64,000 nucleotides of DNA, taken from assembly GCA_019057815.1 (NCBI GenBank), contig JAHLWR010000008.1:1-64000 (forward strand), written 5' to 3'. This DNA is from Candidatus Heimdallarchaeota archaeon. GTDB lineage: Archaea > Asgardarchaeota > Heimdallarchaeia > Heimdallarchaeales > Heimdallarchaeaceae. Position numbers and translations under genes: made by a program. This document shows positions 9,296 to 59,548 of this stretch, in pieces (positions within the stretch are counted from its first letter, which is position 1; each line of letters starts with the position of its first letter). The notes beneath the pieces were generated by a model that had not been told where the DNA came from, ran no database searches, and saw only the letters and a list, made by a program, of their open reading frames with translations.

Positions 9296-9632
9296 AGTCT
9301 TGATTTTTGTACATTTTATTATACATCAATCTTGCGCTTCAAGAACCCCTACGAGGGGGAAGCAATCATCGCGCCGTTGAAGATGGACTATAACACCTTA
9401 GCCACGGACACTGGAGAAGACAAGCTTTTCCGCTCACGTGGAACGTGTGACCTTATTAAGGTCATCTAATCTTCCTTCTAGGGAGACGAACCCAGGGGGA
9501 AGGACCCTATCATACGTCTTGTTCTTTAGAGATTATCCTGACACGCTGTGCCAGTAATGATGTTTCCACATCACTATACTATTATTCATAAAATACTATT
9601 TAAAGCAAACAAAAAATGTACAAAAATTGCTC
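9296..9632 (-). mobile_element. Non-autonomous 337-bp insertion element carrying a promoter and structured RNA (E1)
   Basis: CCAT direct repeat at 9292-9295 and 9633-9636; perfect 15-bp subterminal inverted repeat ATTTTTGTACATTTT (9303-9317 / 9613-9627); removal restores the codons for SHGSR. Confidence 0.85.
9330..9574 (-). ncRNA. Putative structured ncRNA inside E1
   Basis: TTTAAATA box (9604-9597) then, 30 nt later, hairpins GTGATGT-GGAA-ACATCAT, TGGCAC-AGC-GTGTCA (G.U favours minus strand), TGACCTT-AAT-AAGGTCA, CCCCT-CGT-AGGGG; GC content well above flanks. Confidence 0.55.
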
Positions 9633-10171
9633 CCATGAGATGTATATTGGTACACTATTCGTAGAGTGTTCTTAGCATTAAGAATTGCAGAATCAGGTAT
9701 TTCATCTAGTCTAACAGAGTTACATATTGAATGGTCAGCTATTGTTGGTTCTAAAGCTGCTCTAACTGTTCCTCCAGAAAGCAAAATGATAGCTAACGGT
9801 ATAACTATTACAACTAAAACACTAAATTGTCTTTTCTTCAAGGTAATCACCAATAAAGAATAATTCATCCTTTAACATTAATAAATGATTTGGCATTTGA
9901 AATGAAAAAACAATCTTCTTCAATTTACTAAAGAATAAGCTTGGTATTAAGGTGTTTTTAACAAAGTCCAGGTATTTATTTAACTAATAAAGACTTTGCA
10001 AAAGTGTTCCTTGGATGGATAGTTGCAGGAAAATGCTTATTATACTCTTTAACTGAAACAATTAGAAAAGATTAGGAAAGCACTTAATGTTTTCCATCGA
10101 AGTTAATTATTCTTTGCTCTAATATGTGTGATTCATATTATCCATCTTGTCTTTGAGAACTGTATCATTAT

Positions 10172-11362
10172 CTATGTACCAAGCTTTTTCGAATGAAAGA
10201 GTATGTTCTGAACAACAGCTGCTCCTTCTCTTATTGCTGAGGTCGGATGATCTGTGCAACATGCCCGACAATCTCCAGCTGCAAACAACCCTTCGGTTTT
10301 AGTCATCATTTTGTCATTTGTTTTAATAAAACCATCATGCGTAAAATCTACCATATCGAGTACAGCATCTGCGTTAGGTTCCACTCCAATAAATACGAAA
10401 ACTCCGTCGGGATTTAGTGTTATTTTCTTTTTTGTAGTTGAATCAATAATTTTCAATCCAAATGGTTTTTCTTCATCCTTTATTATGAATTCTACGACCT
10501 CTTTATTCGCTACTAAATTGATCTTATCATTCCTTGAAACAGCAATTTGTTCTTCATGCGATGCTTTCCAATTCTCATGTCGACCTAGTATTGTTATTTT
10601 AGAAGCATATTTAGATAAAAATAAAGCTTCCTTGAACGCTTTATCTCCACTTCCAATTACAACTAATTCTTTATCTTTATAGAATGGACCATCACAAGCA
10701 GCACAGTAATGTACTTGGTGCCCTACTGTTTGTTCTTCTCCAGGGATATTTAGTCGTTGACTTCTTCTACCTGAAGCTACAACGATTATTTTCGCACCTA
10801 TTGTCCGACCGTAAGAGGTTCTAGCTCTAAAAGTGTCTCCTGATTTTTGTATTTGAACTATTTCTGAAGAGCCGATGAATTCAACACCAGCTGTGTTCCC
10901 CTGTATATTTAGTCTTTTTGCCAGATCATAACCGTCAATACCTTCAGGAAATCCAGGATAATTATCAACTTTTCTGAAAAAGCATAATTGTCCCCCAATT
11001 GCATCCTTTTCAACAATAGCTGTGTCAATGCCCGAATTTGCTAATAGAAGCGCACAATTCAATCCAGTTATACCGCTTCCAATTATAAGAATCTCGTGAA
11101 AATCCTTCCCATTAATAATATCTACTTCTAATTTTCTAGAAAGTTCTTCATTTGAAGGAACAGATAACACTGTACCATCTGTGAAAACAATAGTAGGGAC
11201 TCTTCGTTTTCCATCATTAAGTTTTCTAACAATTTCAGTTGCTTCTTCATCTTTATTTATATCAATAGTTTTGCAGACAATACCATTATCTTCTAAAAAT
11301 TTCTTTGTTCTTCTGCAATCTGAACACCAAGTAGTAGTATACACAACCTCTATTTCAGACAT
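10172..11362 (-). CDS. trxB: Glutaredoxin (NrdH/mycoredoxin-like)-thioredoxin reductase fusion
   Basis: N-terminal WCSDC and VPTI; then GSGITG, NYPGF, CAACDG, FAAGD motifs. Confidence 0.88.
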   Translation of the reverse strand: MSEIEVVYTTTWCSDCRRTKKFLEDNGIVCKTIDINKDEEATEIVRKLNDGKRRVPTIVFTDGTVLSVPSNEELSRKLEVDIINGKDFHEILIIGSGITGLNCALLLANSGIDTAIVEKDAIGGQLCFFRKVDNYPGFPEGIDGYDLAKRLNIQGNTAGVEFIGSSEIVQIQKSGDTFRARTSYGRTIGAKIIVVASGRRSQRLNIPGEEQTVGHQVHYCAACDGPFYKDKELVVIGSGDKAFKEALFLSKYASKITILGRHENWKASHEEQIAVSRNDKINLVANKEVVEFIIKDEEKPFGLKIIDSTTKKKITLNPDGVFVFIGVEPNADAVLDMVDFTHDGFIKTNDKMMTKTEGLFAAGDCRACCTDHPTSAIREGAAVVQNILFHSKKLGT

Positions 11363-11784
11363 GCTAGGGAGATATAATTGAGTGTTTTAAGCATTGTCCA
11401 ATGACACTATTAAGGGAAGGAGGACAATGGAATGATTTTTTTATACAATCAAGTTCATCTGTCGGTTTTTGAAAACGACAAAATAGATCTACTACAACCT
11501 CTCTTATCCCTCCTACACTCCATTTAGGGGTGTGCTTACGTATAGCTTATTGATGATGAAGACACGAAGATGTGACTACTTGTCTAAAATCCTTAAGTAC
11601 AATGGTGTGAAAAGGATACTTAAAATCCAACAAATGAGTGTGAAACAGTATTACCCGTAACATAACTTCTTTCTGTTTCTTTTTTTTGGGATTATCACTA
11701 AACATCTAAACACATATTCTATCATACACTCAGCTGAATAATCTATTCAACGCTTACATTTAAATATTAGAAAGTAAAGTTCTA

Positions 11785-12111
11785 ATGATGACTAAGGTTG
11801 CATACCATTTACTCTGCGATTGCAAGAAAGCTGTAAATGCTTATGCCTGTCCTGTATGTATTCTAGCGCCTACTGTCAAAAAAGAATATCATTATTATTC
11901 ATGTTCTCACTGTAAGATGGATTTTACATGTGATCATGCTTTAAAAATAAGTTTTGAGTTTGATGAAGGAGGTCTCCCTAGTCAAACTTCAATTGTCTGT
12001 GGAAGATGTGAAACTAAACTGGAAGAACATATCTGGCCTATAGAAGGTGAAGATCTTGAGAGAAATAATTATCCAAAAAAAAGTGTAAGCATTTATCACA
12101 GAAATTACTAA
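11785..12111 (+). CDS. Cys-rich putative multi-zinc-finger protein
   Basis: CDC, CPVC, CSHC, CDH, CGRC in 108 aa. Confidence 0.6.
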   Translation: MMTKVAYHLLCDCKKAVNAYACPVCILAPTVKKEYHYYSCSHCKMDFTCDHALKISFEFDEGGLPSQTSIVCGRCETKLEEHIWPIEGEDLERNNYPKKSVSIYHRNY

Positions 12112-12131
12112 AAAAAGAGAGAGTTTTAAAT

Positions 12132-13013
12132 TTAATTAAGAATTATTTTTCGTGATACTGGATCAAATTCTAGAACACTTATTTCGTGCATTGATATCAA
12201 AATAGTTTTGAGTATAACCGCTGATTTATCTAATCGCTCTGCAAGTTCATCTATTGTTAGAATTTTTGGAGCAGCCTTCTCTAACTCTAAGTATATACGA
12301 CCTTCATCACTGCTTTTCAGTATTTTGCGTATATTTTCATTTTGAGATAGACTTGGTCCAATTTTGGTTTTCATTTCTTCATATTTAGTTGTTAGAGCTT
12401 TGAATTTCTTCTTGAATTCATCTCTCTCGGATGCAATCTGTTGTAGATTACCCTCAATACTAGCTCTTTCAGTCTGTGTTTTACCTATTTTTTCAGCTAC
12501 ACCAGCTATTTCCTTATCAAGTTTGCTAATTCTTCCTGTTTTTTCTTTGAGTAAAATTTCTTGTTCCTTAATTTTATCTTCTAATTCTACAATTTCTTTA
12601 TCTCTTTCTTCTACAATCATCTTCTCTTGTTCTAATTCATTCTTAAAAGATTCAAAGAGGTTTTCAAAATCTGAAAATTGACTTTGTAATTTTTCAATAT
12701 CGCCCTTAAAAACTGTAGAAGAATCGTTTAACTGTTTTTTAATGTCTTTCTGAAAGTTAGTATAAGAAGAAGTTTTTTCTACAGTACTCTTAGCTTGTTT
12801 GGTTATTTCCTCAATTTTCTTATTAGCTCCTTCTAATTGAACTCTTGTACTTCCCAACTTATTATCCTGATCTTTACAAGTTTTTTCCAAATCTTGCAAT
12901 CTCTTCTCGTATACCTTTTTTTCTTTATTTAAATAACCTTCAAGGATATCTATCTTCTTTTCCAAATGTTTTATAACATTGTTAATATTGTCAAGATCTT
13001 TTCCTCTAAACAT
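12132..13013 (-). CDS. Long coiled-coil protein with probable C-terminal winged-helix domain
   Basis: About 220 aa heptad-rich region; C-terminal LTIDELAERLDKS...VLEFD wHTH-like pattern. Confidence 0.7.
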   Translation of the reverse strand: MFRGKDLDNINNVIKHLEKKIDILEGYLNKEKKVYEKRLQDLEKTCKDQDNKLGSTRVQLEGANKKIEEITKQAKSTVEKTSSYTNFQKDIKKQLNDSSTVFKGDIEKLQSQFSDFENLFESFKNELEQEKMIVEERDKEIVELEDKIKEQEILLKEKTGRISKLDKEIAGVAEKIGKTQTERASIEGNLQQIASERDEFKKKFKALTTKYEEMKTKIGPSLSQNENIRKILKSSDEGRIYLELEKAAPKILTIDELAERLDKSAVILKTILISMHEISVLEFDPVSRKIILN

Positions 13014-13120
13014 TTTATCACTTCAGAAGTACTTATTCTACAATCTTCGATTGATAAGTTTTAAACATTATTATAGTACTGTGTTAGAATAAAGGAAAAG
13101 CGATAGTAATACTATGAAGT

Positions 13121-13296
13121 GAAACTCTAATTCTGAAATGATTTCAAATCAGGGAACTAAATTTAATATTAAACTAAAATTTGTAAAACAGGTCCCAACT
13201 AACAATTAGCTAGTTTTGAGTTAAATAGCATGCAGCTAATGTTAGTTGAGTAATTCTAGATAATTGTTATTCAAATCATTTCTGATTTTTAGTTTC
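13121..13296. mobile_element. Possible MITE with 24-bp terminal inverted repeats
   Basis: 13121-13144 vs 13273-13296 inverted repeat 20/24; internal hairpin 13196-13211 / 13234-13248; no clear TSD. Confidence 0.5.
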
Positions 13297-13312
13297 TCGG
13301 TTTCTTTATAAG

Positions 13313-13539
13313 CAGTTTTTTGTACATTTTTAGTGTTTATATAGAATCGTATCGATTATCCCTTGAAGGATTGTAGATATGCACCAAATTCATGGTGATC
13401 CTCGGGTCTACATCCAACAAAAACTAAAAAGCGAAACCGTAAGCATTTTCATGAGAAGATGTGGGCGGTGTAGGAGGGTATGTGGCGTACCCATGATGTG
13501 CCCTAAGCACTTCTAAAGGATTTGTACAAAAATCATGTC
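13313..13539 (+). mobile_element. Non-autonomous 227-bp element related to E1, carrying a promoter and structured RNA (E2)
   Basis: ATAAG direct repeat 13308-13312 / 13540-13544; subterminal IR TTTTTGTACA 13317-13326 / 13523-13532, same as E1; TTTATATA box at 13336; stems TGTAGAT/GTCTACA, CATTTTC/GAAGATG, GGGTATG/CGTACCC with G.U pairs favouring the + strand. Confidence 0.75.
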
Positions 13540-13578
13540 ATAAGGTTGAGTCTTGAAATTCAGATTATTACCACCAAT

Positions 13579-13695
13579 TTATGCACCAATTAATTGAAAT
13601 CTAACTACTTGGGTTAATTGATCTAACTTGTTCAATTCTCGACTATATCCTTTTGCTACGCTTTTTTCAAATCGTTGAGTTATTTTTTTAATCAT
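13579..13695 (-). CDS. Small peptide P2 (38 aa) MIKKITQRFEKSVAKGYSRELNKLDQLTQVVRFQLIGA
   Basis: Read manually; AGGTGA SD; gap-free paralogue of adjacent P1. Confidence 0.7.
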   Translation of the reverse strand: MIKKITQRFEKSVAKGYSRELNKLDQLTQVVRFQLIGA

Positions 13696-13704
13696 TCTTA
13701 TCAC

Positions 13705-13827
13705 CTATTTTATTGCACCTACTAATCGTAGTCTGACTTCTTGAGTCAATCTTTCAATACTGTTGTATTGTTTTCCATATTCTTGTTCATGTCCGTTTTC
13801 CAGTTTTTGAGATGTTCTTTTAACCAT
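13705..13827 (-). CDS. Small peptide P1 (40 aa) MVKRTSQKLENGHEQEYGKQYNSIERLTQEVRLRLVGAIK
   Basis: Read manually; AGGTG SD; aligns ungapped with P2. Confidence 0.7.
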   Translation of the reverse strand: MVKRTSQKLENGHEQEYGKQYNSIERLTQEVRLRLVGAIK

Positions 13828-14367
13828 TTTTTTGCACCTATACTTACTATAGAGTCCCATTTATTAAGCAATTTTAAAATTCACTTGTTTTACGACCTAA
13901 CTCTAGAGTTTTAAAGAAGTTATTATTGATAGAAACATATAACCAAAGCTATAATGCTATAAACTAAAAGGTTAAAGTACCAATGACGAAACTCTAGCGC
14001 GTTTTAATCAGTGTTTCAAGAGTGATAGTTTCCTTCGAGATGAAGATTCTTTGAGCTTATTTTTTCAATATTCCCTACAGTAAAACTCCGCTCAACAGAA
14101 GATTTTCGTTGATTTGATTTTAAAAAATAATAATTAGAATAGAGAAATTAAATGTGGTACAATTAGATTTAGTATCTAATTTATCTTAACAGGTCATGAT
14201 CCACCAGAGTAGAAATTCTATGATCTTGCTTGAGAGTTAAAAGAAAAAATGTGATTCATAAAGAAGAATTCTTTCTTTTTTTCTTAATTTGCTTTAGATA
14301 GGTTTATTATAAATGGTGTTAAGTTTTATATAGAAATTTAAAAGCAAATTTGTATTAATATATCTTT

Positions 14368-17103
14368 GTGGGATTCAGAATGTTTAAGAGGAATACAATT
14401 AAAAACAGAATGTCATTCTTCATTTATTCCTCGATATTAACAATTACAATTCTATTTCTATTACTAGCTGGAGGGATTTTTGCTTCTGTTCAGACGGAAA
14501 AAAGTAAAGTAGAATCTTTGAAATATTCTGATATTGGATTGAACAACAACGAAGCTCCCAACCTGGCAGATTTCTCGTTTCTTGTTCTTTATGAAAGTCT
14601 TACAACAGAGGATAGCATCTTTCTTTCACAATTTATAGAAAATTTGACTTCACTTGGTAGTATGAATAATTTTGTACCACATGTAATTTTAAAAAAAATG
14701 AACATAGGTGTCCCAATTACTATTTCTACATCGACAACAAATATTTCTTATAACATTATAGGTGTTTCTCAATCTACTCTTAATTGGATGTTCCCCAACA
14801 CAACATTTTCGACAGATACAATTCACTTACCTAACAGTTTTAATCTATCAGAACACGTAGAAACAGGAAAAAATGTTACAATTAAATCATATAATAATAG
14901 TAAAGAGGTAACAATAGGACACTTTTACGATGAACCATACTTCATTTTCGATAATAAAATCACGGATGTCGGACTTGTTCCCTTGTCTTTGTTTTTTAAT
15001 TTGACAGAAAATCTCAACATACGATCCTTATATGTTTTTGGGCTTATTGACTGCGAATCAGACTATTTATGTAAGCTTTCACTTCAAAAAATTGATGATT
15101 ATTTTAACGAAGTTAAGGAAGATATAGATGTTCTAGCAGAAAAGAATAATGTTCTTATAAATTATTGGTTCTACTGGAGAGATAACTTTGCGGGAAGTAT
15201 AAGGGAAAATTTACTAACCCAATTTGGTCAACTTCAAGTTGTATTAGCTCCAACGTATTTGTTACTTCTGCTAATATTTTGGTTTACAATGACTGAAAGT
15301 TTTATTCCACTAAAAAAAGAATATCGTCTTTTTCTCACACGGGGAGCCAAACCCCGTAAATTTATACAACATTATTTAGTGATATTTATTCTTTTTGATT
15401 TCAGTTTTCTACTGTTATTTGGAATAATCGGAGAAATAATTTCGCAATTATCATGGCAAACTTCTTCTATAGGATTTTCGTTAATTTCTGGTATTTTAAC
15501 TCTTGTTTTACTTGAACTGATTAAAATAATAGCTTTAATACTCTTTACTAAACATGAACAATTATTCTTCAAAACTCAAACTGAAAAACCAAAATCATAT
15601 ATCAGCAAGAAAGGTTTGCCAGGAAAATATATTATTATTCTATTGGCATTTGGGGGAATTGTGCTCGGTTATTCTTATCTTATACCTTTATTCCTACCTT
15701 TTGAATCTCTTACTCCCGTGGTCCAGATAACAAGAATAGTTTCAGGTGTTATACTATTACTGACTATTGCCTTATTTTCTTCTAAACTCAGCTTAAATAC
15801 GCTTTTTCGCTTTATTCAACATTCCTCCTCAGTTTCTTTTTTGGCAGTATCTAAGCTTCTACACAGTTTGTTCCTTTCTAAAAGACGTCGTTTTCAATTT
15901 TTTAGTATAATCGTATTTTGGGTGATCTTACTTTCAACGTACGTTATTAATAGCTATGGCATGGATGTTCAGATAAAAAATCGCTATTGGGAGACTTATA
16001 ATCTTGATATAGGTTTGTATTTAGGGCGTTCGAAACCCGTAATGAATCGTGCTTATTACTTATTACTTGACGATGTTTCAAATATTCTTTCAGATAACGA
16101 TATTAAGAATTATATTCAGGTAGCGAGATTAAGAGTTGTAGAGGAAATTGGAGGAAATGAAGTGAACAGAGGAACCATTGTCTTCCTACCTTTTGCTAAT
16201 GTTACAGCTGCTTGCCCTTCATTTCTTTCTTTTGAAAATTCAAAGGGTGAAAGTGTGAATGCTTCTGCTTTTAGTGAAAATGAAAATCGTGTTCTTTTAT
16301 CTCATAAAGCAATTAGGAAAGAAAAATACATTGTGGGAGACAACTTGACTCTAAATATGCGGTTTCTTGGTCCTGTATTAAACTCTTCTTTAACAGAAAA
16401 ACAAAGTGTTAATATAACGATATATGATGATTTTACTTATGTTCCGTTTTTTAACAATGAACCTTTTTATGAATTTGGTGATTATGGAGATTATGTTTAC
16501 TTAGCGGATTTTTCTTTGATGGAGAAAATCTTTGGGGAATCGTTTTTTTCATACATTTTATTTGAACTAAAGGAAGATGTTGACCCACATCAGTGGTATG
16601 ATAAGATCCGAAATAAACTGAGTAATGTTGAGGATCAATTCATGATTATCTTTACAAAAGATAAGATAAAAGAATACTTAGATATATATGTACTTCTTCC
16701 AATAGAAGGATTCCTACTCTCTCTTATAGCTATATTCTTTACTTTTTTCTACTTTCAAGTAATTTTTAGAGAAAATGAAAAACAATTATTAACTTCTATT
16801 TCAAGAGGGATGAATCCCAAATTGCTACAGCGCACTATTTTCAAATGTTCTGTATTATTAGTAATGATAAACATACTATTGAGTTTTATAATGGGTGTAA
16901 TAATTTCCGTTGTAATTCCTTTTGGTCCTAGTTTTGAGGAAATCAAAATGTTTCAAATAAGTTTCCTTTCCTTTTTTGTTTTACTAGAATTTGGGGGGAT
17001 AATATTAGGGAGTCTAATCATGTTAATTATCAATCATATAACGCTTATGAAAAGGATTAATACATCCAATTTAACAACTTTAAGAGAAACAATATTAGGG
17101 TGA
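14368..17103 (+). CDS. FtsX/MacB-like ABC transporter permease (duplicated architecture)
   Basis: Two large extracytoplasmic domains each followed by TM bundles with LTRGA / ISRGM motifs; overlaps the ATPase gene. Confidence 0.75.
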   Translation: MGFRMFKRNTIKNRMSFFIYSSILTITILFLLLAGGIFASVQTEKSKVESLKYSDIGLNNNEAPNLADFSFLVLYESLTTEDSIFLSQFIENLTSLGSMNNFVPHVILKKMNIGVPITISTSTTNISYNIIGVSQSTLNWMFPNTTFSTDTIHLPNSFNLSEHVETGKNVTIKSYNNSKEVTIGHFYDEPYFIFDNKITDVGLVPLSLFFNLTENLNIRSLYVFGLIDCESDYLCKLSLQKIDDYFNEVKEDIDVLAEKNNVLINYWFYWRDNFAGSIRENLLTQFGQLQVVLAPTYLLLLLIFWFTMTESFIPLKKEYRLFLTRGAKPRKFIQHYLVIFILFDFSFLLLFGIIGEIISQLSWQTSSIGFSLISGILTLVLLELIKIIALILFTKHEQLFFKTQTEKPKSYISKKGLPGKYIIILLAFGGIVLGYSYLIPLFLPFESLTPVVQITRIVSGVILLLTIALFSSKLSLNTLFRFIQHSSSVSFLAVSKLLHSLFLSKRRRFQFFSIIVFWVILLSTYVINSYGMDVQIKNRYWETYNLDIGLYLGRSKPVMNRAYYLLLDDVSNILSDNDIKNYIQVARLRVVEEIGGNEVNRGTIVFLPFANVTAACPSFLSFENSKGESVNASAFSENENRVLLSHKAIRKEKYIVGDNLTLNMRFLGPVLNSSLTEKQSVNITIYDDFTYVPFFNNEPFYEFGDYGDYVYLADFSLMEKIFGESFFSYILFELKEDVDPHQWYDKIRNKLSNVEDQFMIIFTKDKIKEYLDIYVLLPIEGFLLSLIAIFFTFFYFQVIFRENEKQLLTSISRGMNPKLLQRTIFKCSVLLVMINILLSFIMGVIISVVIPFGPSFEEIKMFQISFLSFFVLLEFGGIILGSLIMLIINHITLMKRINTSNLTTLRETILG

Positions 17104-17771
17104 AGAAAGTGAATAATAAACTTATTGTGGAGAATTTAGAAAAGGTGTATAAAACTGAAGTGGAGACTATAGCTGTAAGAGACTTCAATTTAAAAATGAA
17201 CGCTGGTGAGATCGTTACACTAGCTGGTCCAAGTGGATCAGGAAAAACAACTATCTTATTCTGTATAGCTAGTCTTTTAGAACCTACTTTTGGTAAAATT
17301 ATTGTTAATAATAAAGTCATTAATACATTTCTTGCTGAAGAATTAATTGCTTACAGACGAAATATCGTTGGTATAATTTTCCAAAATTACAATCTTATAG
17401 AATATTTGACAGTTTTTGAGAATGTAGCTTTCCCTCTCTGGTTAGCCGAAAAGAAAAAGAAAGATGTAAAGGAAAGAGTCAATGATTTATTAGAAAAACT
17501 AGATATTGCTCGATATGCTCAAACTTTTCCTTGTTTCTTAAGTATGGGTGAACAACAAAGAGTAGCTATTGGAGTGGCACTAGCTAATGATCCAGAGATA
17601 ATTTTAGCTGATGAACCTACAGGTAATTTAGACCGTAAAACTGCTGATATTGTTGTTAATCTTTTAATTAACGAAGTAGAAGAGTCAGGAAAAATACTAG
17701 TTCTTGCTACTCATGATGAGAAAATTATTCATGATTCCGCAAGAGTAATTTCCCTTGAAAAGAGGACATAG
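17100..17771 (+). CDS. ABC transporter ATP-binding protein (LolD/MacB-type)
   Basis: GPSGSGKT, LSMGEQQRV, ILADEPTGNLD, ATHD. Confidence 0.95.
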   Translation: MKKVNNKLIVENLEKVYKTEVETIAVRDFNLKMNAGEIVTLAGPSGSGKTTILFCIASLLEPTFGKIIVNNKVINTFLAEELIAYRRNIVGIIFQNYNLIEYLTVFENVAFPLWLAEKKKKDVKERVNDLLEKLDIARYAQTFPCFLSMGEQQRVAIGVALANDPEIILADEPTGNLDRKTADIVVNLLINEVEESGKILVLATHDEKIIHDSARVISLEKRT

Positions 17772-18146
17772 ATCCACCAACTACTTTTGTGTTGTTAAAT
17801 CTTTATACAATGTTAATACTACTATACTCTCATTTTCTTTTAATACTTCTTCCCATATTTACATCTTTGAGATATTCTTTTACATCTATCAACTTTACAG
17901 AAAAAACATTCTTTAGTCATATATTATCTTTATTTCAGTGAAACAAATTTGCTTTACAGATATTTTTCTAATATTATTCAGAATAGAGCAAAGATAGGTA
18001 AAAGAATAGCATTTTAAACTGAACTACTAGTAACTCTTCTCTGAAAACAGCTAGAAAAATACTTTCAATTAACCCTCCATCGTCATCTTTGTAATTTTAA
18101 AATTATTTATTCTCACCTTGTTTAAACAGTTTATATATCAAAATCT

Positions 18147-19373: not shown

Positions 19374-19382
19374 TGTGATAAA

Positions 19383-22286: not shown

Positions 22287-22287
22287 A

Positions 22288-22734: not shown

Positions 22735-22745
22735 GAGGTTATAGT

Positions 22746-24089: not shown

Positions 24090-24091
24090 AA

Positions 24092-42196: not shown

Positions 42197-42286
42197 AATT
42201 TTCTTTTCTTTTCTTTTCTTTTCTTTTTAATCACAATTTGTGCACTAAATATATAAATTCCCTTTGTTTTATCTGCTTGCCTAGAT

Positions 42287-47461: not shown

Positions 47462-47462
47462 G

Positions 47463-47852
47463 ATGATGAAAATGAAATTAGGTATAATATCAGAAGTGTT
47501 CAAAAATCTCTTTAAAAGACCGATGACAGTACTCTTTCCAGAAGAAAGAATTGAGATTCCAGAAAGGAATAGAGGAGAGCATAAGTTTGATATAGACACT
47601 TGTATATCCTGTGGATCCTGTGCTAAAATCTGTCCAAACAAAGCAATAAAAATGGTTGAAGCTCCCCCAGAATTTAAGGAGAAATATCCCAAAACCTATC
47701 CACAAGTGGATCTCGGAAAATGTTGCTTTTGTGCATTGTGTGAAGATATTTGTCCAAAAGGTTCTCTAACATTAACAACATACGTTTTCCTAGCAACTTT
47801 TGATAAAGATACTACAATGAGAAACCCAATTAACGTTGAACAAATAGACTAA
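47463..47852 (+). CDS. NuoI/MbxN-like 2x[4Fe-4S] ferredoxin subunit
   Basis: CISCGSCAKICP and CCFCALCEDICP. Confidence 0.9.
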   Translation: MMKMKLGIISEVFKNLFKRPMTVLFPEERIEIPERNRGEHKFDIDTCISCGSCAKICPNKAIKMVEAPPEFKEKYPKTYPQVDLGKCCFCALCEDICPKGSLTLTTYVFLATFDKDTTMRNPINVEQID

Positions 47853-47979
47853 CCTTTATTTTTTTTTGCATGAAAACTTACCACCGAAAGTAAATGGATA
47901 GATGATAGAAATATTAGAAAAATTAAATTGGAGTGAAATTAAGAGAAATCAAGACTTAAGATAATACAACATAAAATTT

Positions 47980-49512: not shown

Positions 49513-49594
49513 ATTAAACTATGACGATGTCTGTTTGAAAGATGCATCAGATTCTCATTCAACTTCTCCAACTTAACTATTTGAGACAAAAAAA

Positions 49595-50821: not shown

Positions 50822-50930
50822 TAACTCTTTTCATTTTTCTTTTTTAAAGTTAGGAAAAAATTACTTCTACTTTTGATTAAACTTTTTAAAGAAGAACAAG
50901 AATTTAATTTTGATTAAAGAAGGTTAAGTT

Positions 50931-52226
50931 ATGGGTGAAGCTCGAGCACATTGGGATATGTTAAACTTAATTCGCCGAGAGAAATTTGACATTATTCTAC
51001 CAAAAGCTATGAAGGAAAATGGAATCGACATGTGGATTCATGTGATGAGAGAAGGAAATCCTGACCCTCTAGCTATTGATTTGGGGGGACATCTTGGTTA
51101 TTTTATTTTTACTGACCGTGGAGATAACAGAATTGAAAGAGCAGTATTAGGTGGTGATGAGCATACACTCAAGAAGAATGGAGCTTATGATATTTTTGGT
51201 TTAGAAGAAGAGCTAAAACAGTTTGTCTCTGAACGTGACCCCAAGCATATTGCTATCAATATATCAGAATGGATTGCTGTTGCTGATGGTCTTTCGCATA
51301 CAGGATACTTAAAATTGGTCAAGGTTCTTGGTGACAAGTATGCAGAAAGGTTAGTTTCAGCTGAACAACTAATAACTGATTTCCGTACGAGAAGAGTAAC
51401 AAGTGAGATTGTAGTTTATGGAAAACTGTGCGAAACAGCAAGACAGCTTCTTGAAAAAGCTTTATCCAATGCAGTTATCACACCTGGAATAACCTCGTTA
51501 GAGGATATAGCTTGGTGGATGGAAGATCAGCTTCTAGTTAGAGGGATGAGCTCTACATTCGAGCTTTGTACGCCAAATATCATCCATTCAGCTAAATCCA
51601 AAGAGTCAGAATATAGGTCTGACCAATACATAATTCAACGAGGTGATTTGTTGCAGTATGACTATGGTATCAGCTTCATGAACCTAGGTACAGATTTTAA
51701 ACGCGTAGCGTATGTTTTACTAGAAGGAGAAATAGCTGTTCCCTCAAGTTTTCAATATGGTTGGGATCAAGCACTGAAAGCTCGTAAAGTTATCCGCAAA
51801 AACATCAAAATAGGTAAAACCGCGGGAGAAACGCTTAAAATCCTAGGTAAAGCTCTGCAAGAGGAGGATTTTGTATATATTCACCTTACAAAGGATCCTA
51901 TGCATGACGGAGGTCCTAGCTTAGAACCGGATGAACATTATAAATATCCAGGAAAAACAGGTATTTCAATAGATTGCCATTGTGTAGGAAATACTGGTAA
52001 TAGCGAAGTTGCATCTGGTCCCTCGATTGCGGGTTTTCGTCCAGATCGGGCTCATGTTGTAATTAAACCAAATAACCTTTTTGCATTTGAATTCGTCGCT
52101 TATACGCCTGTACCAGAATGGGGAGGAAGGAAAATTCGTTTTAATATCGAAGATGATGCAATTGTCACAGAAAATGGCGTTGAGTGGCTCTATCCTCCAA
52201 ACGAAAAGATTCTATTAATTCATTGA
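50931..52226 (+). CDS. M24-family (Xaa-Pro) peptidase-like protein
   Basis: IQRGDLLQYDYG, TDFKR, HCVG, FAFE, IEDD motifs. Confidence 0.85.
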   Translation: MGEARAHWDMLNLIRREKFDIILPKAMKENGIDMWIHVMREGNPDPLAIDLGGHLGYFIFTDRGDNRIERAVLGGDEHTLKKNGAYDIFGLEEELKQFVSERDPKHIAINISEWIAVADGLSHTGYLKLVKVLGDKYAERLVSAEQLITDFRTRRVTSEIVVYGKLCETARQLLEKALSNAVITPGITSLEDIAWWMEDQLLVRGMSSTFELCTPNIIHSAKSKESEYRSDQYIIQRGDLLQYDYGISFMNLGTDFKRVAYVLLEGEIAVPSSFQYGWDQALKARKVIRKNIKIGKTAGETLKILGKALQEEDFVYIHLTKDPMHDGGPSLEPDEHYKYPGKTGISIDCHCVGNTGNSEVASGPSIAGFRPDRAHVVIKPNNLFAFEFVAYTPVPEWGGRKIRFNIEDDAIVTENGVEWLYPPNEKILLIH

Positions 52227-52335
52227 ACTCTGTGAAACTGATTCTCGTGGTTTGGATGATCTATCCATGTGATAATTATGTTAAAAATGGTTTTGGGTTT
52301 GAGGTTACGTTTTTAAACTAACTCGAGATTTTCAG

Positions 52336-53838
52336 ATGAGAGATATTATGGAATTAAATGAAATTCTAGAGAAAATCAAAGCTGATTTCCAAGATATTCA
52401 TCTTAAAGAAATTCAAAGATTCATAAGACAACCTTCAGTTTCTGCTGATGGCAATGGAATTATTGAAACAGCTGAAATGTTAGTTAAGAAAATAGAAAAA
52501 CTTGGAGGAAAAGATGTTCATTTAGCTGATCTATCTGGTGATGATTTTGGTCATCCTTTTGTTTATGGAGAAATCCTTTCTAATGTTTCTAAACCTACTC
52601 TTCTCTTTTACAGTATGTACGATGTTCAACCTGTATTTCCTGAAAATTGGGTCTATGATGATAGGAAAATAGATCCGTTCGGAGCTGAAATTATTGATTT
52701 CGAATGGATACCTGGTTATACAGGAAAATGCCTTATGGGACGCGGAGTCTGTAACCAGAAAGGACCAACAATTGCTTTCTTCAATGTTCTTGATATTTAT
52801 AAGGAACTCTATGGTGAACTTCCTTTCAACATTATCTTTGCTCTCGAAGGTGAAGAAGAATTAGGTTCCACTCATATAGGACCATTCATTGATGAATATA
52901 AAGAAAAACTCAAACGTGCAGAAGTACTACTCTTCCCAGCATTTTGGGAAAATGAAATTGGACGTATAAATATGCCTTTAGGTGTTCGAGGTGTTGTTTC
53001 TTTAAAGCTTAAATGTAAGGGTGGAGAATGGGGAGGACCAACAATTCGAAACCAACACTCTGCAGTGTCAGGAATAATTCAGAGTCCAGTTTTCAAATTG
53101 ATTGAATGTTTAAATGCTTTGAAAAAAGATGAATCTAATGAAATTTTGGTTCCGGGGATAATGGATGATCCTGACATAATAGGTCCTGATGAGGAGGATG
53201 AAGAAGTTATTCAGAACTTCCTAAAAAATCATTCTTTTGAAGAAGAGATGAAAAGAGATGGAAACATCAAAATTTTTCGTATAGATGAAAATGGTCAAGA
53301 GTTGTCAGATAAGGACGCTATCATCGAGATGTTGTTTAAACCAGGAATTTCTATTAATGGAATAGAAGGAGGTTACTACGGAAAGGGGAGTATGACTATA
53401 ATTCCTAAAGAAATTAAAGCTAACCTAGATATACGTTTACCTCCTTTCCAATCAAGAAGTTATGTTATTGAAAAATATAGTAACTTTTTGGACAAGAATT
53501 TTCCGATGGTAGAATATGAATTCGAAAAAGGTGGTTATGAAGCTGGTAAGATTCCCTTTTCCCATCCATTAGCTCAAACAGCTTACAGTATCTATAAAGA
53601 ATTTAATAAAGAAGTGTTAGTTCTTCCTTTACTTGCAGGTTCTGCTCCTTTTGCTCTTTTTCAAAAAAAGTTAGATATTCCCTTTCTTGTCATTGGAATA
53701 GGGCATAGCGGAAGAGCACATTCTCCGTTAGAGTATGCTGTTATTGAATCAAAACAACCTGAAGTCGGAGGTATTATTGATTTTGAGTTGTATTCAGCAA
53801 TGCTGCTAAATAAGCTTAGTAGAGATTTGAAAACCTGA
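52336..53838 (+). CDS. M20-family peptidase/deacylase
   Basis: YDVQP, GRGV..QKG, EGEEELGS, AHSPLE. Confidence 0.88.
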   Translation: MRDIMELNEILEKIKADFQDIHLKEIQRFIRQPSVSADGNGIIETAEMLVKKIEKLGGKDVHLADLSGDDFGHPFVYGEILSNVSKPTLLFYSMYDVQPVFPENWVYDDRKIDPFGAEIIDFEWIPGYTGKCLMGRGVCNQKGPTIAFFNVLDIYKELYGELPFNIIFALEGEEELGSTHIGPFIDEYKEKLKRAEVLLFPAFWENEIGRINMPLGVRGVVSLKLKCKGGEWGGPTIRNQHSAVSGIIQSPVFKLIECLNALKKDESNEILVPGIMDDPDIIGPDEEDEEVIQNFLKNHSFEEEMKRDGNIKIFRIDENGQELSDKDAIIEMLFKPGISINGIEGGYYGKGSMTIIPKEIKANLDIRLPPFQSRSYVIEKYSNFLDKNFPMVEYEFEKGGYEAGKIPFSHPLAQTAYSIYKEFNKEVLVLPLLAGSAPFALFQKKLDIPFLVIGIGHSGRAHSPLEYAVIESKQPEVGGIIDFELYSAMLLNKLSRDLKT

Positions 53839-54327
53839 TATTCATAGCTCAAATCTTTTCACTTTTTCGACAATAAATATAAACTTACATCATATCTTAT
53901 TTAGATGACTTACATGATGAGTAAATGAGGAGAAATCTGTCGGTCGGTTTCTTAATAGCATTACTCGTTTTGAGTTTGCAAAGGAAGTTAACTAATTAAT
54001 TCTTCGATTATAGATTTTTTTCCTTTTTTACTATTGTATAACAAAAAATACCTTGATTGGAGAATAATTATCTTTAGCTTTTATGTCATTAAAATAAGTT
54101 GAAATTATTTATTTTCTTTTAATCACAAATTATTCCTTTTAACTCGAAAGCAAGAATAAAATGAAGAATTACAGTTGTTATAAGAATTTTGAAGGCTTTT
54201 TAGCAGATAAAATACAAAAAGAAATAGAATCTGAAGGAATTGCAAAGGAAAAAGTTAAACGATACTTTTTACATGTTTTTGGTGGAAGCTTAAAATGATA
54301 ATGAGTAAAACGATGCAAACTAAATTT

Positions 54328-55722
54328 TCATAGAGAATTAACTTTAATTAGAAGACCAGGGTCATCTAGTACAAAAATCGTAGCTTCAGAGTTATTTTCC
54401 AATACTCGTTTTACTTCCCTTCTAAGGGCTTTGATCGGACTCTCAGAAGCTTCTTTTATTGGTACAATTCGATTGATAATCAGTTTTTGGCTGTCCATAT
54501 CTGAGATCATCATTATATTGCCATCTCCAATCTTCTTTAAAACTCGCAAAATCTCGACTGGGTTTTGATTACCTATATCAAACGTTTTTTCACTGCAGTA
54601 ATTATCTAAGACGTAATCCAAAGCTTTTTGCGTCGACATGTCTTTACATTCATCCATGATCTTTTCATAATTCTTATTTCCTATCTGTTCTGGACATGGA
54701 GATAAAACGATTATTTGTCCCTCTCCATCTTCTTTGACACCATATGATGCTGCACAAATTCCCTTACCAGTTTGATATAAGTTAATACCCCAGTTTTTCA
54801 ATCCAGTGATGATTAAATCTGCAGGTCTGGGTACTTTTACCGTTCTCATATTTATTATCTGTTCTACTGCTTCTTCATGTAGTTTTACAATATCTCCTGC
54901 ATTTAGGTAAACTATCTCTCCATCTGTTACAATGGCATCAATACCAAAAATATGAACTTGCTCTTTTACAATCTCTACAATGTTCTTTATATCTTGAATA
55001 ACAGGATTGTTTTCAACATTTCCTAGCTTGCATTCAGGAACAAATCCAAACTCTCTATGAAACATTTGCGTGTGATTGATTTTAACAGTTTTTCTACTTG
55101 CTAATCCTGGGCAAATATGTTTGATTGTACCAGCCATTCCAGCAAAATAGTGTAACTCACTATCTGTAAGTGGAATCAGCATAGAGCAACTTTGTACCCA
55201 CTTGTTCAAAAGTATAGGAGTTCCTACTGTACTTTTTCCATATTCAATCATCTCTGAATTATCACAATCATGAGAAACAATGTTATCTTTGAGCAGATCA
55301 GCCATTTTTTCTCCAATAATATTCGAATATTCCTCCTTTCTTGAAATTCTGTGAGTACCTGTTGCAATAAGAATTTTGATATCTTCCTTTCTTAAACCCA
55401 GAGAGAGTAATTTCTTGACTAGAATTGGAATTATCCTTTTAGTGTGAATGTTTGGTCTTGTACTGTCATCCACAGTTATAACAATAGGTTTTCCTCTTTG
55501 AAAAACATCTCTAACTATTGAATCGAAGGATTGATTGTAACCTAGAGGATTTTGAAATGCTTTTTCTAAAGCTTCTTCTGTTGTTCCCTCGTATTGTTTT
55601 TTTTTGGAAAAAACAGGCGATTTGATGACGGTTACTTGCTTTTCTACATATTTAGGAATGAAATTGTCGATTGTTTCTGTTCCCCAACTAATTGGAGTAG
55701 ACAAGTAATCAGAATTCATCAA
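54328..55722 (-). CDS. Lactate racemase LarA-superfamily (nickel-pincer) enzyme
   Basis: DDSTRP, IATGTHR, HDCD, HYFAG..G..K..CPG, NLYQTGK. Confidence 0.85.
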   Translation of the reverse strand: MMNSDYLSTPISWGTETIDNFIPKYVEKQVTVIKSPVFSKKKQYEGTTEEALEKAFQNPLGYNQSFDSIVRDVFQRGKPIVITVDDSTRPNIHTKRIIPILVKKLLSLGLRKEDIKILIATGTHRISRKEEYSNIIGEKMADLLKDNIVSHDCDNSEMIEYGKSTVGTPILLNKWVQSCSMLIPLTDSELHYFAGMAGTIKHICPGLASRKTVKINHTQMFHREFGFVPECKLGNVENNPVIQDIKNIVEIVKEQVHIFGIDAIVTDGEIVYLNAGDIVKLHEEAVEQIINMRTVKVPRPADLIITGLKNWGINLYQTGKGICAASYGVKEDGEGQIIVLSPCPEQIGNKNYEKIMDECKDMSTQKALDYVLDNYCSEKTFDIGNQNPVEILRVLKKIGDGNIMMISDMDSQKLIINRIVPIKEASESPIKALRREVKRVLENNSEATIFVLDDPGLLIKVNSL

Positions 55723-55908
55723 GTAGATTTATTGACTCTATTAATTAAATATTGCTCTGAATTGAATGATTTTTTCTAAATAATGTACAGCAATTTCCTT
55801 AGCTTCTATAGAGACAAATAGTAGTAAAGGTATTTTTGATTCTGATTATCAAGAAAATTTAACATATCTGGTAGAAAATCTTTAAATTAGAATAATGCAA
55901 GTGTTTCT

Positions 55909-56325
55909 GTGAAACAGTTTTCTGAAAAACAATACAATATTTTACTTATTATAATAGCTGCAATAATTGTCGTAGTAGGAAATGTTGTAACCTTTTGGAT
56001 ATTTATCTCAATAGGAACATCAGATTATGTTGTATATTTGGGATGCTTTTTATCAGCGTTTGTTGCAGGTATAGTAGTATCACTTCTATATAAAGGCAAG
56101 TTATTCACTAAATGGATTATTCTAAGTACGATTCTTATTTTAGTTGTTCTATTCCTTATTATGATAATATTTGCGTTTTCCGTAGATGACCAACCCATAT
56201 ATTTCTTAAAAGATTCAATCGATATTTTCGGGTTTATTTTTGCAATTGATGCCTTGATTTATAGTTCAACATTTTTCGCAACATACTATTTAAAGCATAT
56301 AATCATCAAAAAACTAAATGAGTAA
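55909..56325 (+). CDS. Small 4-TM membrane protein
   Basis: Four hydrophobic segments. Confidence 0.65.
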   Translation: MKQFSEKQYNILLIIIAAIIVVVGNVVTFWIFISIGTSDYVVYLGCFLSAFVAGIVVSLLYKGKLFTKWIILSTILILVVLFLIMIIFAFSVDDQPIYFLKDSIDIFGFIFAIDALIYSSTFFATYYLKHIIIKKLNE

Positions 56326-56374
56326 TGTATATTATTTTCATGGACAAATTTAGATTAAATCAACAAAAAGGAAA

Positions 56375-57040
56375 CTATTTTTTACCTTTCCTATAACCTC
56401 TAACTAAAAATATGCAAAATAATGAAAATATTGCCAAGGGATAATTGAAGGGTAGAGAACTTTTACTAGTGTAGATAGTCACAGTGTTAAAAGAGATATC
56501 CATATTTGGAAAACCTATATAAGTAATTTTAATCTCATTTTCAGTTATTTCTATGAGTGATTTACTATGTTCTATACCTGCTACATTACCATAAACCCAA
56601 ATCTTGTACCTCCCTTCTGGAAGCTTGGTCAGATTCTGTTGATTAATTCCAAGCAGGAAATTAGTCGTTCCATTTGTTATTCCAGATTCTATGGTGACAT
56701 CTCTCTCCGCAGGTAACTCATAATACGATAATGGTACTATTTGCAATGATGAATTGTCAAAATCTGCAGACATATTTCCCAAGAAGTGACGAAGCCAACA
56801 ATGGAATGTAATGACAATATCACTTGAGTTAGGATTTAATTTTTTAAAACCAATATCAAACCAAAAATACGAGTAACTAGAATTTGAATCAACATAATAA
56901 TAAGGACACCAAGAGACATCGGTAACTTTTGTGTAAACAAGACTATTATTTTCAAAGTTAGCTGGAACTTCTAGACTTAAGGATACTAAAAGACTTAAAA
57001 TAATAACACAAACAAATGTTTTCTTGAAATAGAAATCCAT
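56375..57040 (-). CDS. Secreted protein with C-terminal TM anchor
   Basis: Signal peptide; terminal hydrophobic helix followed by basic residues. Confidence 0.7.
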   Translation of the reverse strand: MDFYFKKTFVCVIILSLLVSLSLEVPANFENNSLVYTKVTDVSWCPYYYVDSNSSYSYFWFDIGFKKLNPNSSDIVITFHCWLRHFLGNMSADFDNSSLQIVPLSYYELPAERDVTIESGITNGTTNFLLGINQQNLTKLPEGRYKIWVYGNVAGIEHSKSLIEITENEIKITYIGFPNMDISFNTVTIYTSKSSLPFNYPLAIFSLFCIFLVRGYRKGKK

Positions 57041-57188
57041 TTGACTTAGAATAATTTAAACATTAATAAAATTTACTTCAAAAGATATAGTCGTTATGTA
57101 CAAATCATTTACATACACATCAATGTAATCTAAGTTAGATACATCTTTTGCATAGATTTATTAACGTTCGAGAATCCTAATTTGACAT

Positions 57189-59548
57189 ATGTGGGACAGA
57201 TTCAGTAAACCAAGATTTACCAAACATGCAATCATCATATTTCTTGTGATATTTTTTACTCCTTCTCTTATAATCCCCACCAATGTAGTCACTAATAATC
57301 CTTCGACAAATGAAATAATATTAAATCTAACTAAAACAATCAATCTAGAATTATCTACACCTACGGAACTAGAAAGTTTCTTAGATTCTATAATCCCCGA
57401 ACAGCTGACAAACTATTCCATAGCTGGTGCTACTTTTTCTATGGTTAAAGATGGTTCCATATTTTTTGAGAAAGGATATGGTTATGCTAATTCTGTATAT
57501 AAGTCTCCAGTTGTAGCAAATGAGACTCTTTTCAGGATTGGCTCAATTTCGAAGACATTTACTTCGATTGCAGTTTTACAATTAGTAGAAAAGGGATTAC
57601 TAGATTTAGATACAGATATCAATAGCTATCTTTCTGCATTCAAAATACCGGAAACGTATGAAGAATCTATAACTCTTAGACATTTACTAACTCATACAGC
57701 TGGTTTTGAAAGAGCGGTTTTTACAGTAATTCATGCTTATGGTCATTTAATTGAACCTTTAGAAGATTTATTAGCAGAAGGCATGCCAGATAGAGTCTGA
57801 CTACCTGGTGTAATTTCATCATACTCCAACTACGCACGTTATGATACTTGGTTAAAATTGCCAGAGGCTTTCTAACCGTCGTTTGAAGGGGGTTTCACCC
57901 TTGACCCCTCACGTGCGTTGAGGGGTAGTCACGAAGACTTTTCCATTATAGTTAGTGTATCATCACCACGGAGCTAGCTAGGCTCCCTATTTCATAGATA
58001 GTTAACTGAGGGACAACCACTTGTGTAGTTGCGAAACAGAAAAGTGACGATGATCACACTCTCTCTATCTCTGTATTTTTAGATTCATATATAAACCCGT
58101 AGAAAAAAAAGATTTCATTTTTACTCTTCTTCTACATCGTCATTTATGTAGTTAGAACGCGATGGCAGATTTAGCCAACTTTTCTGCACTCAGTGGACGA
58201 CGGTTTCGCTTTAGCAGGTTATATCGTGCAAGAAGTTTCAGGGAAAGATTTTGAACAATACGTGAGTGATGAAATACTAGCTCCTTTAGGAATGAATTCA
58301 AGCACTTTTTTACAACCTCTCCCAAGCAACCTCAATTCGCAAATGTCTTATGGTCATGATGAAAATAATGTTCCAGGTTTTTTTGAATATATCAGCATCC
58401 CCCCTGCTGGATCAGCTAGCTCTACAGCTTCAGATATGGCTAAATTTATGATTACATTATTAAACAATTGTAGTTATAATGGGAACAAAATCCTGGAGAA
58501 CACTTCAGTAGAAATGATGTTAAGTAACCAATTTCTAACTCATGAAAATCTTGCAGGGATTGGTTTAGGTGTTTATGAATTTGATGTGAGTAATCAACGA
58601 ATAATGGGACATGGTGGTGACACTCACTTCTTTCACAGTCGTATGATGCTGTTTCCTGAACTTAACATAGGTATTTTTGCTTCTTACAATAGTGTAGGTG
58701 GATCTATAGCTAGAACTGAACTTTTTAATGAATTTATAGAAGAATATTATCCTTTTTCCAAAGTGGACATAGAACCACTACAAGGATACAAAGGAAGATC
58801 TCGTAGGTTCACTGGGTTTTATGTCTCATCTAGAAGAATCTATTCCGATAAACCCACAGTTGCTGAAAGAGATTATATTGATGAGAGTTTTACTATAACC
58901 ACAAAAAATGGACATCTAATCTATAATGGCTTTCCTGATTTAGAATTTGTAGAAATTGAGCCAAATTACTTTGTGGAATCTACAGGTGAGTATTATCTTG
59001 AAATTGCTTTTATACAAGATAATAAAGGAAGAATAACCCATTTCTACACTAATTTCATAGGATCTCATTATGCTTTTGAAAAAGCTCATTCGCTCTATTT
59101 CGGATCTGAACTTCAATCAGGATTCATAGCTTCAGTTTTAGCATTAACTTTTATTTCATTAGCCTATTGGGGAATTAAAGGTTTAATTGGAGTTTTCAAG
59201 AAGAAAGAGAAAAATCCAAAAATCCAGAAGATAGCGAGATGGAGTTTTCTAGTTAATTTCATTCTTGCTGCAGTAATAGCTATAATGACTACTTTAAAAA
59301 TAAATAAAGATATTCTGCTTGAAATTGATACTGTCGAAGTTTTCAATGGACTACTTGTTTTTCCATTTTTGTATCTTTTAACTGTAATGGTTCTAATAGT
59401 TTTTACATGGTTTGCATGGACTGGAGTGAAAAACATAGAAGAAAAACCTTACTGGAAATTATCTGGGAGAATACACTACTCAATTCTTGTTCTACTCTCC
59501 ATTATTATGATTGGCATATTTGCATCGTGGCATTTCTATTTATTTTAA
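57189..59548 (+). pseudogene. Membrane-anchored serine hydrolase (beta-lactamase-like) disrupted by an in-frame TGA and a 365-bp insert
   Basis: GSISKT (SxxK) and LLTHTAG upstream; DRV*LPGVISSYSNY continues past TGA 57798-57800; after the insert GFALAGYIVQEVSG...GHGGD resumes. Confidence 0.88.
57835..58199 (-). mobile_element. Non-autonomous 365-bp insertion carrying a promoter and structured RNA (E3)
   Basis: ACG duplicated at 57832-57834 / 58200-58202; removal restores TAC GGT (SNY-GFAL); subterminal IR 57848-57863 / 58163-58178 (13/16); minus-strand TTTATATA 58095-58088 with hairpins starting about 58066. Confidence 0.85.

Follow-up and report, generated by a model that had tools for sequence, protein, structure and literature searches.

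Protein-free mini-elements probably derived from TnpB-encoding transposons, with a promoter and an omegaRNA-like scaffold, in a Heimdallarchaeota genome

The first 64,000 nucleotides of contig JAHLWR010000008.1 from a Candidatus Heimdallarchaeota archaeon (assembly GCA_019057815.1), to which we refer as the window, contain three short inserts, E1, E2 and E3, that an initial annotation had singled out as candidate mobile elements consisting of a promoter and a structured RNA. With a probability of roughly 80%, they represent three families of short non-autonomous elements that descended or were assembled from TnpB-encoding sequences of the IS200/IS605-IS607 group and that, having neither tnpB nor any tnpA, kept their left end, in which an archaeal TATA promoter lies, and an omegaRNA scaffold at the right end. 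Judging from their sequences, they are most likely moved in trans by TnpA, and their RNA used in trans by TnpB. The general idea of the initial annotation, that the inserts are non-autonomous, carry only a guide RNA and are served in trans, is thus supported, but its assignment to an IS110/IS1111 system is not.

Copies, empty sites and genome setting

As the initial annotation had proposed, we searched for further copies and empty sites of the three inserts and found both for each of them. The genome searched (G000) comprises 3.7 Mb in 48 contigs, is 95% complete and has 33% G+C; positions are given below as contig:position, preceded by a genome label for relatives. Blastn identified three full copies of E1, about nine of E2 and five of E3, besides partial matches; the covariance model R1 described below gives ten full copies of E2. 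Across the three families the copies within the genome share 83–94% identity (90% for the E1 copies at C7:9674 and C43:256993), and their alignment together with the flanks gave sharp boundaries, which confirm the three inserts where they had originally been placed (Table 1).

In the congener G001 the neighbourhoods of E1 and E2 lie on one contig (C10) with about 90% identity, and neither element is present; the empty sites read GAACCAT/GAGATG for E1 and CTGTAAG/GTTGAG for E2, the slash marking the junction. Contigs from two other metagenome runs (X3, X4) skip 9292–9632 (E1) and 13309–13540 (E2), each with a 4-nt ambiguity. For E3, exact empty sites with the junction on the ACG overlap exist in four genomes of a sister genus (G003:C58, G006:C65, G012:C6, G018:C60). 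The inserts are neither single-copy nor without empty alleles, and no DDE parents with target-site duplications (TSDs) of fixed length were found, any of which the initial annotation had counted against its idea.

No credible open reading frame (ORF), effector or transposase gene lies inside E1, E2 or E3, as the initial annotation had noted. It had also stated that E1 and E3 split genes whose frame can be restored, and this holds as well: in G001, the gene into which E1 is inserted forms an uninterrupted ORF of 322 aa, and the host gene of E3 is uninterrupted in four sister-genus orthologues. The restored reading frames point to scarless insertion and not to splicing.

The genome is archaeal and has two TBP genes. 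Profile searches matched the TnpB zinc-ribbon (TNB) domain 39 times and OrfB_IS605 27 times; there are also two Y1 TnpA genes and several resolvase-domain genes, and IS607-type TnpA genes belong to the genome content. None of the three Cas1 loci found adjoins a tnpB. The TnpB ORFs sort into nine clusters, and the partial blastn matches of E1, E2 and E3 are exactly the 3′ ends of three of these clusters, on the tnpB strand. It is established, and restated in 10.1101/2023.03.14.532601, that TnpB omegaRNAs are encoded at this place, the 3′ end of tnpB and the right end of the element.

RNA scaffolds and their TnpB-linked relatives

In the RNAs of E1, E2 and E3 base pairs are kept by compensatory changes, which indicates that the RNAs are under selection. 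The evidence is most extensive for E2. We aligned 21 E2 copies from eight genomes (G000 and seven relatives) in two genera and folded the alignment (A1) with RNAalifold. The resulting structure has 49 pairs, and 97.2% of the cells are paired, compared to 34–50% when the partners are slid; eight pairs are changed on both sides. The covariation score was reached by none of 500 shuffles, a figure that is not a probability, because the copies are related. The RNA lies on the plus strand, since a number of U.G pairs that never vary would turn into A.C if the opposite strand were read.

A covariance model, as called for in the initial annotation, was built from the E2 alignment; this model, R1, matches not only the ten full copies in the genome but also, on the coding strand, the 3′ end of all eleven cluster-5 tnpB genes (31–51 bits, E-values 2e-10 to 5e-5). 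Blastn agrees: the E2 core is 77–88% identical to the final 100 nt of the cluster-5 genes, which encode 419 aa. In five relatives the model found 27 full E2 copies, and the scores there are bimodal, with 160–226 bits for mini-elements and 30–56 bits for tnpB-linked RNAs. In three of the matches with intermediate scores in relatives (70–136 bits), a look at the upstream sequence revealed no tnpB.

Along the element, the E2 scaffold is better conserved than the outermost bases of the left end. Copies differ in the 4–6 nt that separate the left inverted repeat from the flank TTATA, which is conserved, and the spacer at the right end, TCATGTC, is nearly invariant across the family. A variable left and an invariant right spacer would fit a constraint by the RNA that acts on the right end only. 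As a separate observation, two oppositely oriented E2 copies surround a cluster-5 TnpB element (C1:106567-107829) at C1:105423-108558; the arrangement could be composite, or the site could be a hotspot for insertions.

For E1, the 3′ half of the RNA is 72% identical over 156 nt (E-value 8e-15) to the 3′ end of a 430-aa tnpB (C1:40770-42062) together with the adjoining right end. The element around this gene (C1:40731-42133) has the same end layout as E1 and, like it, interrupts a gene without leaving a scar. The three E1 copies and three parent elements have a common structure of 42 pairs, seven of them compensatory. It includes a long-range helix, in which the last bases of the right end pair with a segment about 90 nt upstream and which reads GACUA/UAGUC in E1 and GUCGA/UCGAC in the parents. 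The folding z-score of E1 is −2.29 on the TATA strand and −1.56 on the other strand. In its host gene, E1 is accompanied by a further difference: about 384 bp present in the G001 orthologue (G001:C10:9582-9966) are missing (window position ~9180–9190), reflecting either a deletion that followed the disruption of the gene or a repeat region that varies.

For E3, the last 91–95 nt are 82–85% identical to the 3′ and right ends of the 652-aa cluster-7 tnpB genes. The loop of a conserved hairpin at 57906–57926 is complementary to the eight 3′-terminal bases of the RNA (57832–57839), and the same is found in the 652-aa parents. The folding z-score is −3.35 on the TATA strand, compared to −1.22 on the other strand. 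With the z-scores of E1 and E3 and the conserved G.U and compensatory pairs of E2, the initial proposal of a structured RNA on the TATA strand holds for each insert. E3 is antisense to its host gene.

The left end of E3 leads to its parent, as it matches an IS607-type element at C27:145860 with 85% identity over 40 nt. This element (C27:145860-148588) follows ACCGT, starts with CGTCCACTGAG and ends with CATAACGTGCGT directly at the junction, as E3 does. Its genes are, in order, a tnpA with MerR-type helix-turn-helix (HTH) and resolvase domains (Pfam MerR and Resolvase) and the 652-aa TnpB-like gene, which is the IS607 layout. E3 retains about 40 nt of the parent's left end and about 110 nt of its right end; the 225 nt in the middle are specific to the E3 family. 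Copies with the same left end, the ACCGT flank and an intact tnpA are present in G001:C184 and G012:C14, and further relatives have intact tnpA orthologues; a copy in G001:C137 has an E3-type left end, but its tnpA contains one in-frame TAG. The initial annotation had suggested looking for full-length parents with the same ends and a transposase: for E3 this parent, encoding a MerR-HTH serine recombinase and TnpB, exists; the full-length elements found with E1-type ends encode TnpB only.

The 652-aa TnpB has an N-terminal extension of about 230 aa and keeps the RuvC-I aspartate and the RuvC-II glutamate. Its RuvC-III motif is altered (see below), and the gene sits within a multicopy IS607-type transposon; a 641-aa relative (C22:28133-30058) has DTH at RuvC-III. 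At C21:23674-23814, 143 bp of the E3 RNA body are present as a fragment; about 55 nt downstream of it follows a 652-aa TnpB element that is truncated at its 5′ end, an arrangement that suggests recombination between mini-element and parent.

Promoters

Most tnpB genes of the genome have a TTTWTATAG-like box 25–35 nt before the start codon, some with ACGGG before the box. The boxes of E1, E2 and E3 are of this tnpB type, in agreement with the internal TATA box of the initial annotation, and the aligned copies retain them, except that some copies of E2 and E3 deviate at a single base. In E3, the box is kept in nine of eleven copies (one substitution each in L047 and L049), as is the CGGG preceding it (one-base variation in L047 and L052). 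By our own estimate from 33% G+C, chance alone would produce an 8-mer composed like the TATA box about 0.2 times in each element, so that we place weight on the positional conservation of the box and not on its presence. Between promoter and right end there is no run of five or more T, and tracts of T5–T8 lie just upstream of the promoters. The promoters, and transcription that reads through into the flank, are predicted from the sequences; a look-up of public sequencing runs listed no RNA run that contains this genome.

Ends, cores and a possible common chassis

The short duplicated cores of the initial annotation, CCAT in E1 (9292–9295 and 9633–9636), ATAAG in E2 (13308–13312 and 13540–13544) and ACG in E3 (57832–57834 and 58200–58202), are present. 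Across copies, however, only AT (E1, E2) or CGT (E3, RNA strand) recurs, so the longer matches are partly due to chance; the overlap at the junctions ranges from 2 to 5 nt, with no fixed length. The subterminal inverted repeats, too, are real, but the unequal distances from the ends that had been described apply only to E3 (23 versus 15 nt). In E1 and E2, whose repeats are of the TTTTTGTACA type, they lie symmetrically at 8/8 and 7/7 nt from the AT core. With AT as core and equal spacers, the excised junction of E1 or E2 would be symmetric around AT, which would fit a serine recombinase. The flanks on the left side are conserved as well: TTAT in 22 of 29 E2 copies, TCAT or TTAT in E1 and its parents, and ACCGT in nine of eleven E3 copies.

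Ends in common with TnpB elements are found for E3 (left end, right end and ACCGT) and for E1 (C1:40731-42133), and E2 has E1-type ends. E1 and E2 have the left end and promoter in common (TTTTTGTACATTTTT, 5–7 nt, TTTAWATAG) as well as the right end (TGTACAAAAATCA..AT). That they combine a common end with different interiors had been recognized initially; the interiors, however, were taken for reprogrammed guides, whereas they are scaffolds from different TnpB clusters, and the guide would lie outside the element, in the flank of the right end. The cluster-5 elements, to which the E2 scaffold is related, have related but non-identical ends (TTTTTGTC...GACAAAAA) with the core within ATGA. E1 and E2 lack the GC-rich end hairpins of the Y1-type cluster-0 and cluster-3 elements of the genome.

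A genome search between pairs of TTTTTGTACA and TGTACAAAAA returned only the 430-aa TnpB element, the mini-elements and chance pairs, one of them around an aminotransferase gene. Searching public genomes with the 430-aa TnpB led to three near-identical, TnpB-only copies in one metagenome-assembled genome of a Candidatus Heimdallarchaeota, with no adjacent recombinase. Two intact IS607-type TnpA genes (C9:67948-68541 and C18:42-656; L060 and L061), 90% identical to each other, lie at contig ends; their left ends have GG followed by GGTGACCAACTATTCCC, and the remainder of the element is unassembled. With these different ends they are no obvious partner of E1 and E2. A resolvase at C1:82593, beside an E1-like end fragment, has no N-terminal MerR HTH and resembles an ordinary small serine recombinase.

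It is conceivable, although we consider it rather doubtful, that E1 and E2 are one protein-free chassis loaded with the omegaRNA scaffolds of two TnpB lineages and moved by a recombinase that acts on an attP-like, AT-symmetric site. If so, they would be RNA-only hyperparasites, able to switch which resident TnpB they exploit.

Proposed working of the elements

The analysis shows that the elements are mobile and multicopy, have empty sites, are homologous in their ends and RNA to tnpB elements and conserve the structure of the RNA. Transcription, homing, the loading of TnpB in trans and which transposase serves E1 and E2 are what we infer, and the parts can be combined as follows. Transcription would start about 25 nt after the TATA box and cross the scaffold and then the right end into the flank, so that the guide of each copy would be its own flank; in E1, the transcript would run leftwards beyond 9296, with ~9276–9295 as the would-be guide. 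A transposase supplied in trans, for E3 an IS607-type serine recombinase, would excise the element and insert it beside a short motif overlapping the core, TYAT for E1 and E2 and ACCGT for E3. Full-length relatives would provide the TnpB that takes up the RNA and cuts the empty site, consisting of motif and flank, and repair from the sister copy would then restore the mini-element.

The conserved left flanks fit such a transposon-adjacent motif that overlaps the recombination core. In an IS607 element, the motif TGGG overlaps the core GG, and TnpB aids retention of the transposon by cutting the donor joint (10.1101/2023.11.20.567912). The role of TnpB in re-copying has been shown experimentally for IS605 and IS607 (10.1101/2023.03.14.532601; 10.1101/2023.11.20.567912).

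Weighing the evidence

Several findings speak against the derivation and working proposed here. Over 70 nt, the identity between the E2 scaffold and the cluster-5 omegaRNAs is no higher than about 77%, and a closer TnpB-linked parent of E2 was not found in six genomes; with a diverged scaffold and no closer TnpB-linked parent, E2 is only putatively compatible with a resident TnpB. The middle 225 nt of E3, including the promoter, have no detectable similarity to the C27 parent and are not alignable with it. The sole tnpA in an E3-type parent of this genome (C27:145955-146506, in L001) has in-frame TGA and TAA stops. In the 652-aa TnpB, NTH replaces the usual NAD, which places a histidine at the position of the third RuvC aspartate (RuvC-III); going by this motif, the protein may not cleave DNA, may be inactive, or may have a rearranged active site. 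Further, a transposase with TTTTTGTACA ends was found neither in this genome nor at three loci of a close Heimdallarchaeota relative.

The altered active site would also suit a reading in which the inserts are inert deletion remnants, comparable to the debris left as miniature inverted-repeat or palindrome-associated transposable elements (MITEs, PATEs), whose promoter and hairpins are leftovers and which are moved by TnpA in trans, the RNA bringing no benefit. Core deletion of IS605-type elements to short PATEs is common in archaea (PMC3119063). Yet three independent families retain the same two modules, promoter and scaffold; compensatory changes hold the E2 helices across two genera, with the scaffold conserved above the outermost left-end bases; the long-range helix covaries between E1 and its parents; and E2 persists in many copies with no close tnpB parent. 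On balance we regard inert remnants as improbable. The missing canonical third RuvC aspartate of the 652-aa TnpB would fit host adoption, too, with immobile copies serving as regulatory small RNAs or as guides of a nuclease-dead TnpB repressor, and TnpB-derived RNA-guided repressors do exist (PMC10705468). This is very unlikely, however, given insertions that are recent, polymorphic between close relatives and gene-disrupting, that occupy unrelated sites with no common neighbour, and given that the 652-aa gene is still inside a multicopy transposon with tnpA.

The system favoured initially, in which elements derived from IS110/IS1111 would have kept only the bridge or seek RNA and depend on a DEDD recombinase in trans, is suggested by the subterminal inverted repeats, the short core and the lack of a fixed TSD, which recall IS1111. 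We nevertheless give it hardly any credence. DEDD_Tnp_IS110 (PF01548) has no match in this 95% complete genome, and control genomes did give matches; a search of the whole window at the Rfam gathering thresholds matched no family. The RNAs are homologous to the 3′ ends of tnpB and not to the non-coding end of IS110, they read outward over one end as omegaRNAs do, and the parent of E3 has a serine recombinase and TnpB. A classical DDE MITE does not match the observations either: the repeats lie 7–8 nt inside the ends, the overlap is 2–5 nt, the interior RNA structure is conserved, and no DDE parent was found, the genome search for an IS630-type DDE gene yielding none. A group I intron or IStron was also rejected, as there is no Rfam match and E3 is antisense to its host gene.

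Relation to known systems

Standalone omegaRNAs of OMEGA systems were described by Altae-Tran et al. (2021), as summarised in PMC10691335. That source reports mobilised standalone omegaRNAs, with neither effector nor transposase, in genomes that contain OMEGA loci; they act in trans with compatible effectors, and their biological role is called unknown. Meers et al. found that PATEs often encode omegaRNAs, on which TnpB would need to act in trans (10.1101/2023.03.14.532601), and Dyall-Smith et al. (2011) that archaeal PATEs arise by core deletion of IS605-type elements (PMC3119063). Mobile standalone omegaRNAs have thus already been described, and E1, E2 and E3 are a clear new example of them, not a new system or a new class. 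Like standalone omegaRNAs and omegaRNA-encoding PATEs, they are short, multicopy and protein-free, need a transposase and an effector in trans, carry the ends of TnpB or IscB elements of the same genome, and have the scaffold at the right end and the guide in the flank. They differ in having their own TATA promoter directly upstream of the scaffold and a Heimdallarchaeota-related host, E1 and E2 in the chassis common to both, and E3 in stemming from a serine-recombinase (IS607-type) element. E1 and E2 are not PATEs in the strict sense, as they have symmetric inverted repeats around AT, whereas PATEs have no inverted terminal repeats and are defined by near-terminal palindromic hairpins resembling the ends of IS200/IS605.

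The parent of E3 resembles the IS607 family, including CboIStron (10.1101/2023.11.20.567912), in encoding a TnpA with MerR-HTH and resolvase domains, a tnpB and a right-end omegaRNA, and in having no TSD, a short core at both junctions and a flank motif overlapping the core. In contrast, E3 itself has neither gene, its core lies within CGT instead of GG, and it contains no group I intron. The parent's TnpB departs from IS607 TnpB in its length of 652 aa, the N-terminal extension and the histidine at the RuvC-III aspartate position. E1, E2 and E3 resemble IS110/IS1111 elements in that their inverted repeats are subterminal, their recombination core is short and they carry a non-coding RNA with structure, but their specificity would lie in a flank-derived guide and not in internal loops. 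With classical DDE MITEs, they share shortness, multiple copies, inverted repeats and non-autonomy.

Three guide-RNA-only families from three TnpB lineages in one archaeal genome form a clean natural example: for every family there is a dated insertion whose empty site is seen in a close relative, and the RNA is backed by covariation. They indicate that serine-recombinase (IS607-type) TnpB elements also yield such mini-elements, and they provide a compact archaeal cassette of promoter and scaffold that is directly testable with resident TnpBs. The E2 family, which is represented by many copies in two genera, conserves its structure and has no close tnpB parent among the genomes that were checked, is possible material for studying the purpose of standalone omegaRNAs.

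Table 1. Coordinates of the three mini-elements, their parts and associated genes (window positions unless a contig is given).
Feature	Position	Strand	Remarks
E1 mini-element	9296–9636	−	341 bp, with the CCAT overlap counted once
E1 left end	9617–9636	−	in RNA orientation, AT core 9635–9636, 8-nt spacer, inverted repeat TTTTTGTACA
E1 TATA box	9597–9604	−	TTTAAATA; kept in three full copies; tnpB-promoter type
E1 predicted omegaRNA-like scaffold	9296–9574	−	homology to tnpB 3′ end, folding z-score, compensatory pairs
E1 right end	9294–9313	−	on the RNA strand, inverted repeat TGTACAAAAA followed by an 8-nt spacer and the AT core (9294–9295)
E2 mini-element	13313–13544	+	232 bp, with the ATAAG overlap counted once
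E2 left inverted repeat	13317–13326	+	TATA box 9 nt downstream
E2 TATA box	13336–13343	+	TTTATATA; 29 aligned copies have TTTATATA or TTTAAATA, few with single-base variants
E2 omegaRNA-like scaffold	13352–13542	+	structure of alignment A1, model R1; presumed guide from ~13543
E3 mini-element	57835–58202	−	368 bp, with the ACG overlap counted once
E3 left end	58163–58202	−	holds the subterminal repeat partner of 57850–57863
E3 promoter	58088–58099	−	T8 tract, CGGG, then TTTATATA
E3 omegaRNA-like scaffold	57832–58069	−	homology to 652-aa tnpB 3′ end, alignment A2, folding z-score
Beta-lactamase-family gene split by E3	57189–59548	+	Pfam PF00144 positions 1–107 and 148–313 in the two halves
652-aa TnpB genes	C27:146593-148551 (L001:894-2852), C12:124017-125975, C21:21501-23459		outside the window

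Additional observations

A tRNA scan of the window found none. At 9939–10125, an intergenic stretch of 187 bp is replaced by 22 other letters in the related strains of the X3 and X4 runs; it is single-copy in the genome and therefore no repeat element. Just downstream of E2, the 230-bp stretch at 13693–13921 has one further copy, with 87% identity, at C43:81529-81756, which lies about 2 kb from another E2 copy.

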